Sequence record: PV464739.1
Direction: 5' to 3' (one strand)
DNA: 64,000 nt
DNA from: Escherichia phage RCIP0363
In this document: positions 3,035 through 3,398 of the stretch, one piece after another
Layout of the letters: every line of letters begins with the position of its first letter
Position numbering within the stretch: the stretch's first letter is position 1
Notes under the pieces: generated by a model
The model's input: the letters and a program-made list of their open reading frames with translations, nothing else
What the model was told of the DNA's origin: nothing
Databases searched by the model: none
Made by a program: the position numbers and the translations under genes

Positions 3035-3084
3035 ATCGCCTGGCAATGGATTGCCGCAGGATTTTACGCGTATAATGACGTATC

Positions 3085-3342
3085 ATCCGTATCAAGTAAG
3101 TAGTTGTTTTCAAAAGAATCTTACGGATGATACGGATGATATGCATTGCCGCGATACTTTATAGGAATTCAAATAAATTAATTTAAAATTATATATCTAA
3201 TTTAATTTTATTTTTTTATAAACTCTTATATATGAAAAGTATCCGTATCATCCGTATCATCCGTAGCACACCAGTGATAGCGCGGCTTATACACCGATAC
3301 GGATAAAAATACGCCTCATTTTATCCGTATCATCCGTATCAC
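3085..3342. repeat. iteron cluster A: 9-bp unit ATCCGTATC in 2-3 tandem copies at several sites in both orientations, flanking an AT-rich tract (3166-3240)
   Basis: Read directly: 3085-3093, 3121-3142 (reverse), 3241-3267 (three units), 3295-3303 (reverse), 3324-3341. Block 3122-3165 is near-identical to 54655-54697. Confidence 0.8.
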
Positions 3343-3398
3343 ACTAATTAAGGCGCGGCTATATCGGTTGTTATACATATTCAAACCATAATTATTGT

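Follow-up and report, generated by a model that had tools for sequence, protein, structure and literature searches.

The replication origins of SaPI satellites consist of 6-12 short iterons arranged around an AT-rich centre, half of them on each side, with at least two iterons per side and opposite directions on the two sides (PMC9371898). They are served by Rep, a self-loading helicase-initiator whose C-terminal winged helix reads the iterons, and the genes are ordered such that pri lies upstream of rep and ori immediately downstream of rep (PMC9371898). Here we describe locus A, a module of short tandem units within the head genes of Escherichia phage RCIP0363 (PV464739.1), of which a 64,000-nucleotide stretch ("the window") was analysed. 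Locus A is a real, selected cis-element. From sequence comparison, structural modelling and analogy with SaPI, we put the probability that it is one of two SaPI Rep-type replication origins in this phage at about 50%.

Iteron systems with two sites include phage P4, with ori and crr (alpha primase-helicase), and SPP1, with oriL and oriR (G38P); in SPP1 the distant repeat locus sits in the late region. The oriV of IncQ plasmids (RSF1010) carries its iterons on one side only, where they are bound by a separate RepC, and the IncQ ssi sites are hairpins of ~40 nt. Repeats are also found flanking the cleavage region of pac sites, such as the hexamers of P1 pac and the pacL-pacC-pacR arrangement of SPP1. 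For T4, a "twin-ring pac synapsis" model proposes two homologous sites per genome, in a review that also mentions SPP1 (PMC9611059).

The phage and its non-coding gap

Nucleotide searches assign the window to the genus Wifcevirus, the PB1-like E. coli myoviruses of ~68 kb, and it is 98.8% identical to ECML-117, TH35 and FEC19. A non-coding gap does precede the head genes, as the earlier note on this DNA had proposed. Its extent is 416 bp (3035-3450) and not the 560 bp first given, since a 45-aa ORF is annotated in relatives at its left edge. This ORF and a head-fibre-like gene form one flank of the gap. For the gene on the other flank, previously called a scaffold gene, the annotation in relatives is head maturation protease (DUF2213).

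Anatomy of locus A

Locus A (~3051-3360) contains ~9-10 units of 9 bp (ATCCGTATC) in opposed arrays round an A+T core, together with degenerate copies (Table 1). The tandem units in both orientations reported in the earlier note are found at the positions it gave, in numbers far beyond chance. The exact 9-mer ATCCGTATC has 8 copies in the 64-kb window against ~0.5 expected on both strands, and all 8 fall within 3085-3340 or at 54661. Allowing at most one mismatch yields 23 matches in the window where 10.3 are expected, a count reached in 0 of 100 shuffles. A 13-mer, CGTATCATCCGTA, also has 8 copies in the window, confined to locus A and its twin, locus B.

The outer-left unit array is kept in 9 Wifcevirus genomes, and the exact 20-mer of the inner-left array flanks the core on both sides in relatives, ~124 bp apart. 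The box GCCGC..TATAGG that borders the core is present in Pantoea and Pseudomonas relatives as well. On the right, the blocks of units plus GCGCGGCT form a 73-bp direct repeat.

The position of the A+T tract (3166-3240) is as first described, and its composition is more extreme than the ~85% then estimated. At 92% A+T it is the top 75-mer of the window, followed by the locus B core with 85%. It is near-invariant in 9 genomes, the differences being two single-genome indels. Folded as a single strand, 3119-3268 reaches -29.5 kcal/mol (z = -7.0). A cruciform or hairpin was considered as the conserved feature and rejected, being strong in locus A and weak in locus B (z = -2.9). Because the arms of locus B are degenerate, what is conserved is the set of sites and not base pairing.

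The TATAAT-containing box noted earlier, GCGTATAATGACGTA, exists at 3069-3083 and has a second copy at 54567-54581. It fails as a promoter, having no usable -35 element and receiving no call in a promoter scan, and reads better as two degenerate units (CGTATAATGA, CGTATCATC). The promoter with TTGCCT and TATAAT 17 bp apart, predicted downstream of the iterons, is present (3399-3427); it adjoins the module and is probably not a component of it. By eye, a similar TATAAT promoter precedes the protease gene in Pantoea phage PA1, Serratia phage MyoSmar and Pbunavirus, and a TATACT promoter precedes it in Xanthomonas phage FoX7, where the module is absent.

Table 1. Coordinates of locus A, its twin and associated genes in the window.
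Feature	Position	Strand	Remarks
45-aa ORF	2897-3034		follows head-fibre-like gene; annotated in relatives; in vB_Eco4M-7, predicted transmembrane domain
Outer-left TTGCCGC motif	3051-3057	+	lineage-independent polar pentanucleotide GCCGC
Degenerate unit copies, locus A	3069-3084		
Outer-left unit array	3069-3093	+	CGTATAATGA, CGTATCATC, CGTATC; includes the "TATAAT box" and one exact ATCCGTATC
Units of locus A, plus strand	3085, 3241, 3250, 3259, 3323, 3332	+	
Units of locus A, minus strand	3122, 3131, 3298	-	
Inner-left array	3122-3141	-	two tandem 9-bp units (TACGGATGA x2), opposite in direction to right-hand array
GC box TTGCCGCGATACTTTATAGG	3146-3165	+	left edge of A+T core
A+T-rich core, internally palindromic	3166-3240	.	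presumed unwinding element; internal inverted repeats
Inner-right array	3241-3267	+	three tandem units: ATCCGTATC, ATCCGTATC, ATCCGTAGC
GCGGC motif, then inverted unit	3282-3304	.	motif 3282-3286; unit GATACGGAT 3296-3304
Second right-hand array	3323-3359	+	two units 3323-3340; second GCGGC motif 3355-3359
Sigma-70-like promoter TTGCCT-17-TATAAT	3399-3427	+	for head protease operon
RepB-type primase	42772-43854	+	Pfam RepB_primase 1.6e-36; PHROG DNA primase
Candidate initiator	45164-46834	+	VapE/Rep1-type self-loading SF3 helicase; C-terminal winged helix at residues ~436-504
Twin module, locus B	54561-54860	.	same box, units, GC box, A+T-rich core, inverted units
Direct terminal repeat of virion DNA	54722-58570	+	single copy in window; 3.7 kb in WFH, Mansfield
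Promoters of terS	55001-55047		two, overlapping, near-consensus sigma-70
Small terminase gene terS	55085-55555	+	PDB 7UXE small terminase, E = 1.2e-32; Mansfield annotation

The twin locus and the virion DNA end

The twin proposed at 54.6 kb is borne out: loci A and B align over the whole module with 74% identity. In both, degenerate units are followed by one unit, ~29 nt, two inverted units and the GC box, then by the A+T core, three units, ~30 nt and one inverted unit; locus A continues with a second unit block. Besides the units, the core sequence is common to the two loci. The edges of locus B are marked by a 20-nt inverted repeat (54561-54580 and 54840-54859), and its single-strand fold is weaker than that of locus A (z = -2.9 vs -7.0).

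When the WFH and Mansfield records are aligned by their first 150 nt, the left end of the virion DNA falls at window position 54722, inside the locus B core, where the direct terminal repeat starts. The WFH record was deposited with both repeat copies, its first 3701 nt being identical to its last 3701 nt, and the repeat ends map to 54722 and 58570. The repeat holds terS and small genes on both strands, and terS lies directly downstream of locus B in all 8 lineages examined. In the Myosmarvirus phages MyoSmar and MTx the terminal-repeat boundary falls within the same module. For the Pbunavirus JG024, restriction and long-read data led to a suggested pac site at 59,376, a position in the core of JG024's own B module. 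Five of 60 sampled Pbunavirus records start at most 5 nt from it. Across the whole phage group 60 records were sampled, and in 12 of these the first base lies 360-890 bp upstream of terS. In Wifcevirus and Myosmarvirus the left end of the virion DNA is mapped to the locus B core; in Pbunavirus this core is the putative pac site.

Several further features surround these ends. The left end at 54722 is 2 nt from a perfect 16-bp palindrome, TTTAAATTAATTTAAA (54724-54739). The right end of the repeat (58570) is closely flanked, on its inner side by four 15-bp tandem repeats AATCATTCGCTTTCG (region 58441-58497) and on its outer side by two copies of AAATTTGCAGTACACTA (region 58593-58706). Both show no similarity to the left end and may serve as recognition sites in right-end formation. 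A tandem ATTTGCACTATGG repeat (55058-55084) abuts the terS start codon, downstream of the sigma-70 promoters. The record of the Pbunavirus PS44 (NC_028939.1, 68,871 bp) contains terS twice and starts ~617 bp upstream of terS. This suggests a deposited terminal repeat, as against the circular permutation reported for other Pbunaviruses, and the packaging mode within Pbunavirus may differ or have been misjudged.

The left arm of locus B has its own history. It differs in about half of the Wifcevirus and Pbunavirus genomes when 53800-54650 is compared, and because the break in similarity sits exactly at the inner units (window ~54651), module B appears to be a mosaic boundary. The arm carries both of the window's copies of TATGGTGCGCCGCGACTGGG (54484-54503 and 54618-54637), which is identical in MyoSmar (~3625-3650, minus strand of our record L015) and includes CTGGG, which has been reported as the core of phage-specific promoters in Pbunavirus 14-1. 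The B-specific motif TGCGCCGCGACTGGG, with its CTGGG core, was tried as a genome-wide promoter motif and rejected (4 matches vs 1.5 expected, with the two in locus B standing out). At the terminus itself, the sequence AATTAACTCC|ATTTT (window 54711-54731) is kept in an uncultured relative, L105 (14886-14906), whose helicase is 75% identical and whose units are partly changed. This combination argues that the cut-site context and the units evolve separately.

Conservation and lineage-specific units

Pantoea phage PA1, Serratia phage MyoSmar and Pbunavirus all carry the module at the two equivalent positions: one copy lies upstream of the head protease gene and the other 16-20 kb before that gene. 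Four uncultured lineages, fetched via helicase homologues, have it at the position upstream of terS. The architecture is constant across lineages, with tandem units of 8-11 bp, opposed arrays and an A+T-rich core of 70-90 bp. The unit itself is particular to each lineage, being ATCCGTATC in Wifcevirus, TAACGGTTA in Pantoea phage PA1, TACTTTTC in MyoSmar and TGGTAATT in Pbunavirus; lineages from metagenomes add ATGATACGT, TATCCGCAAGA and CTATCCGCCAT. Between Wifcevirus subgroups, 3120-3450 is 98.2% identical, compared with 86-90% for the flanking genes. Because the layout is kept while the unit sequence is lineage-specific, and because 3120-3450 is constrained, we conclude from these comparisons that the units are selected, putative protein-binding sites that probably evolve together with their reader. 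Locus A is both more conserved and more symmetric than locus B. Phage FoX7 lacks the module at both positions examined and retains the head-operon promoter. A search for further Kylevirus records with mapped ends matched PA1 alone.

A second signal does not vary with lineage. In 12 of 12 modules, GCCGC (often TTGCCGC) stands only to the left of the core and GCGGC (often GCGGCAA) only to the right, with 22 and 36 occurrences respectively and zero exceptions. The modules compared are window 3051-3359 and 54507-54902 and those of records L009, L010, L012, L014, L015, L020 and L105-L108. Genome-wide, GCGGC shows no such polarity, which is local to the modules. Because the pentanucleotide is strictly polar, on each side of the core GCGGC lies on the strand that leads away from it in the 5'-3' direction. 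The motifs could mark where the primase starts or form an additional group of binding sites.

In existing records the cores are labelled as predicted sigma-70 promoters (LBL3, JG024), labelled as a repeat with no name (debbie) or left without annotation. Garbe et al. had remarked on "AT-rich boxes and conserved motifs" and called their function unclear. The literature and records searched contain no description of the unit architecture, the twin or a link to the helicase.

A candidate initiator

Two candidate initiators had been named in the earlier note. One is assigned here as a RepB-type primase (Table 1); the other, the helicase, stands as a sequence and fold homologue of SaPI1 Rep1. It carries a Pfam VapE-like domain (1.6e-28) and matches PDB 7PDS, the SaPI1 Rep1-DNA complex, with E = 4e-11 as a single sequence and 7e-24 as a profile. 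Its AlphaFold model, built from 37 homologues, has a pLDDT of 84.5, and within it residues 436-504 (pLDDT 81-92) follow the order H-S-H-H-S-S, which is the element order of a winged helix. A Foldseek search with the model returns six 7PDS chains at the top (E = 2.7e-16, ~480 aligned columns, TM(target) 0.61), followed by NrS-1, poxvirus D5/E5 and SaPI5 helicases. The phage thus encodes what the model presents as a Rep-type SF3 helicase with a C-terminal winged helix, as SaPI origins employ.

The genes around it follow the SaPI order in part. The primase gene is upstream of the helicase gene, giving a pri-rep order. Locus A is not directly downstream of the helicase gene: in this phage it lies ~24 kb away, and locus B lies 7.8 kb downstream. 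In Pbunavirus (JG024, LBL3) and MyoSmar the equivalent of locus B is directly downstream of the helicase gene, and in the uncultured lineage L106 one gene separates the two.

In six lineages, the core and C-terminal parts of the helicase are 85/55, 64/35, 61/23, 60/34, 57/29 and 56/21% identical to the window protein. The winged-helix C-terminus is the fastest-diverging part of the helicase, and the units also differ in every lineage. Unlike the helicase, the two halves of TerS diverge evenly. Fast divergence at the helicase C-terminus is suggestive and non-specific, and TerS may still be the reader of the units.

Proposed initiation at locus A

A Rep-type origin is ranked first for locus A because of the Rep1-like helicase, the matching module layout, the upstream primase, the position of the twin and the fast-diverging C-terminus. 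As in SaPI, at least two opposed units stand on each side of the core (3122 and 3131, minus; 3241, 3250 and 3259, plus). The claim of the earlier note that iterons plus an unwinding element make an origin is, overall, partly supported, in that the layout fits a SaPI Rep origin (PMC9371898) and a Rep1-like helicase is encoded. The greater symmetry and conservation of locus A are more in keeping with the loading of two helicase rings in opposed orientation than with a pac site, which is directional. Other observations weigh against an origin. Locus A is ~24 kb from the helicase gene and within the late head module, while the SaPI ori adjoins rep; the units are 8-11 bp long, versus 5-6 bp in SaPI; and the direct data for the twin concern packaging, namely a mapped end or pac site with terS adjacent. 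GC skew was considered as an origin signal and set aside, since it tracks gene orientation and hence gives no independent evidence.

We infer that the helicase binds the units, melts the core and, with priming, starts replication at locus A. At initiation, the winged-helix C-terminal domain of the helicase would recognize the lineage-specific 9-bp units. [quoted passage not shown] The RepB-type primase would lay the first primers on the displaced strands; possible start points are the GCGGC motifs, which point inward and on either side lie on the lagging-strand template. The twin at 54.6 kb would act likewise, with its core additionally the place of left-end formation.

A closer connection between the two processes can be proposed tentatively, with the odds against it: the origin module and the terminase entry site may be one module type, so that the starts of replication and packaging are physically coupled. 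The helicase-melted A+T core of the origin would then be the substrate for the terminase's first cut, and the internal twin, locus A, would be a second origin that pairs with locus B or is shielded from cutting. Cutting of a melted core would explain why the left end or pac site lies in the core of module B beside terS in three genera.

Packaging, regulation and mobility as alternatives

The units may instead be bound by a packaging protein, the small terminase or another, with locus B as the pac site or terminus and locus A as a second, uncut binding site. In one variant, loci A and B might pair in the manner envisaged for T4 ("twin-ring pac synapsis"); in another, locus A might link the expression of head genes to packaging. 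As the account of what the units do this is unlikely; nevertheless, the twin core coincides with the left end or pac site beside terS, and a packaging role is therefore a serious rival or an added function. It draws on the mapped left end in the B core (54722 in WFH and Mansfield, with the repeat boundary of MyoSmar and MTx), on the putative JG024 pac site in a module core with 5/60 Pbunavirus starts within 5 nt, on the 12/60 group records starting shortly upstream of terS, and on terS directly following B in 8/8 lineages. It is also consistent with the core sequence and units that A and B have in common and with FoX7, which is without both modules at the two positions examined. Moreover, repeats flanking a cleavage region are the layout of P1 and SPP1 pac.

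Locus A itself fits this picture poorly. A virion end falls within locus B and not within locus A, which precedes the head protease gene and is neither in nor beside terS. None of 28 Wifcevirus records opens in locus A, and of 297 Pbunavirus records 295 span it intact and one opens in it. The sole Pbunavirus exception, E215 (NC_042080.1), has record position 1 in its locus A core and is an unedited SPAdes contig; the source paper describes a SPAdes assembly as a single contig and reports no end mapping. The counterpart of the B terminus is ~13 nt away from this record start. In addition, locus A is more symmetric and more conserved than locus B, which is unexpected for an auxiliary site, and no part of TerS diverges faster in step with the changing units. 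The TerS of E217 has no appreciable DNA binding in vitro, according to a review (PMC9611059), which also counts against TerS as the unit-binding protein.

Regulation is a less probable explanation and, as an operator, a weak one. Here the units, as the earlier note had suggested as its alternative, would bind a phage regulator of the sigma-70-like head-operon promoter at 3399-3427 and, at locus B, of the terS promoters. Both modules do lie 60-250 bp upstream of near-consensus sigma-70 promoters of late-type genes, and a phage dependent on host RNAP must time such promoters somehow; 14-1 depends on host RNAP and has extra phage-specific promoters (PMC10914365). At locus A, however, the sites neither overlap nor abut the promoter, as a gap of 59 bp separates the end of the last unit (3340) from the -35 element (3399). 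FoX7 has the promoter and no module, and isolated units are absent from other promoters in the window. A symmetric 300-bp module with a near-invariant, 92% A+T palindromic core is also far beyond what an operator needs.

Least probable by far is that the module is a structured-RNA gene or a miniature inverted-repeat mobile element with two copies. The 20-nt inverted repeat bounding locus B and the strong fold of locus A (z = -7.0) are in favour of this reading. Against it, the arms of B are degenerate (z = -2.9), and the copies number only two and keep their syntenic positions across four genera, a conserved synteny on which a MITE is rejected. By eye no target duplication is seen at the module, an Rfam scan of the whole window gave no family at gathering score, and the module has no match in E. 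coli genomes or plasmids. For satellites, an 18-mer scan of genome contigs returned 74 scattered matches in unrelated bacteria, about the chance level for a 596-Gb collection.

Significance

In the literature and records searched there is no replication origin or defined pac site for Wifcevirus or for therapeutic Pbunavirus phages. The present analysis singles out two short DNA segments, a candidate initiator and a rival binding protein. Rebooting or engineering these phages requires intact cis-acting sites. The modules also bear on how one start site serves both relatives with direct terminal repeats and headful-packaging relatives. If the origin module is indeed the terminase entry point, it would be an unusual link between replication and packaging.

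Comparison with known systems

P4 and SPP1 resemble this phage in having two separated loci with the same initiator-binding repeats, one of them near the replication genes; their initiators are different or more distant. The IncQ oriV likewise combines iterons, GC-rich and A+T-rich stretches and opposite-strand priming sites for a RepB-type primase. Unlike the IncQ ssi hairpins, the candidate priming motifs of the phage are pentanucleotides.

The pac sites of P1 and SPP1 are similar to locus B, with repeats on both sides of the point of the virion end and terS adjacent, and the T4 synapsis model shares with this phage the presence of two homologous sites per genome. The phage departs from these systems in that locus A is not an end and in that the Wifcevirus and Myosmarvirus records examined have direct terminal repeats of 3.6-3.7 kb, not headful-permuted ends.

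The SaPI origin (Rep1/PriRep5; PDB 7PDS, 7OLA; PMC9371898) differs from the phage module in several respects. The phage units are 8-11 bp and not 5-6 bp, there are two modules per genome, locus A is ~24 kb from the helicase gene, and the lineage-independent polar GCCGC/GCGGC motif is a phage feature. One module core is also the genome terminus, and the carrier is a 68-kb virulent myovirus with a RepB-type primase and not a satellite. In its basic plan, locus A nevertheless most likely belongs to the known class of iteron origins. As in SaPI, tandem units flank an A+T centre of ~80 bp, a homologous VapE/SF3 helicase is encoded with a primase gene upstream, each lineage has its own unit sequence and, in several relatives, the helicase gene is followed directly by the twin module.
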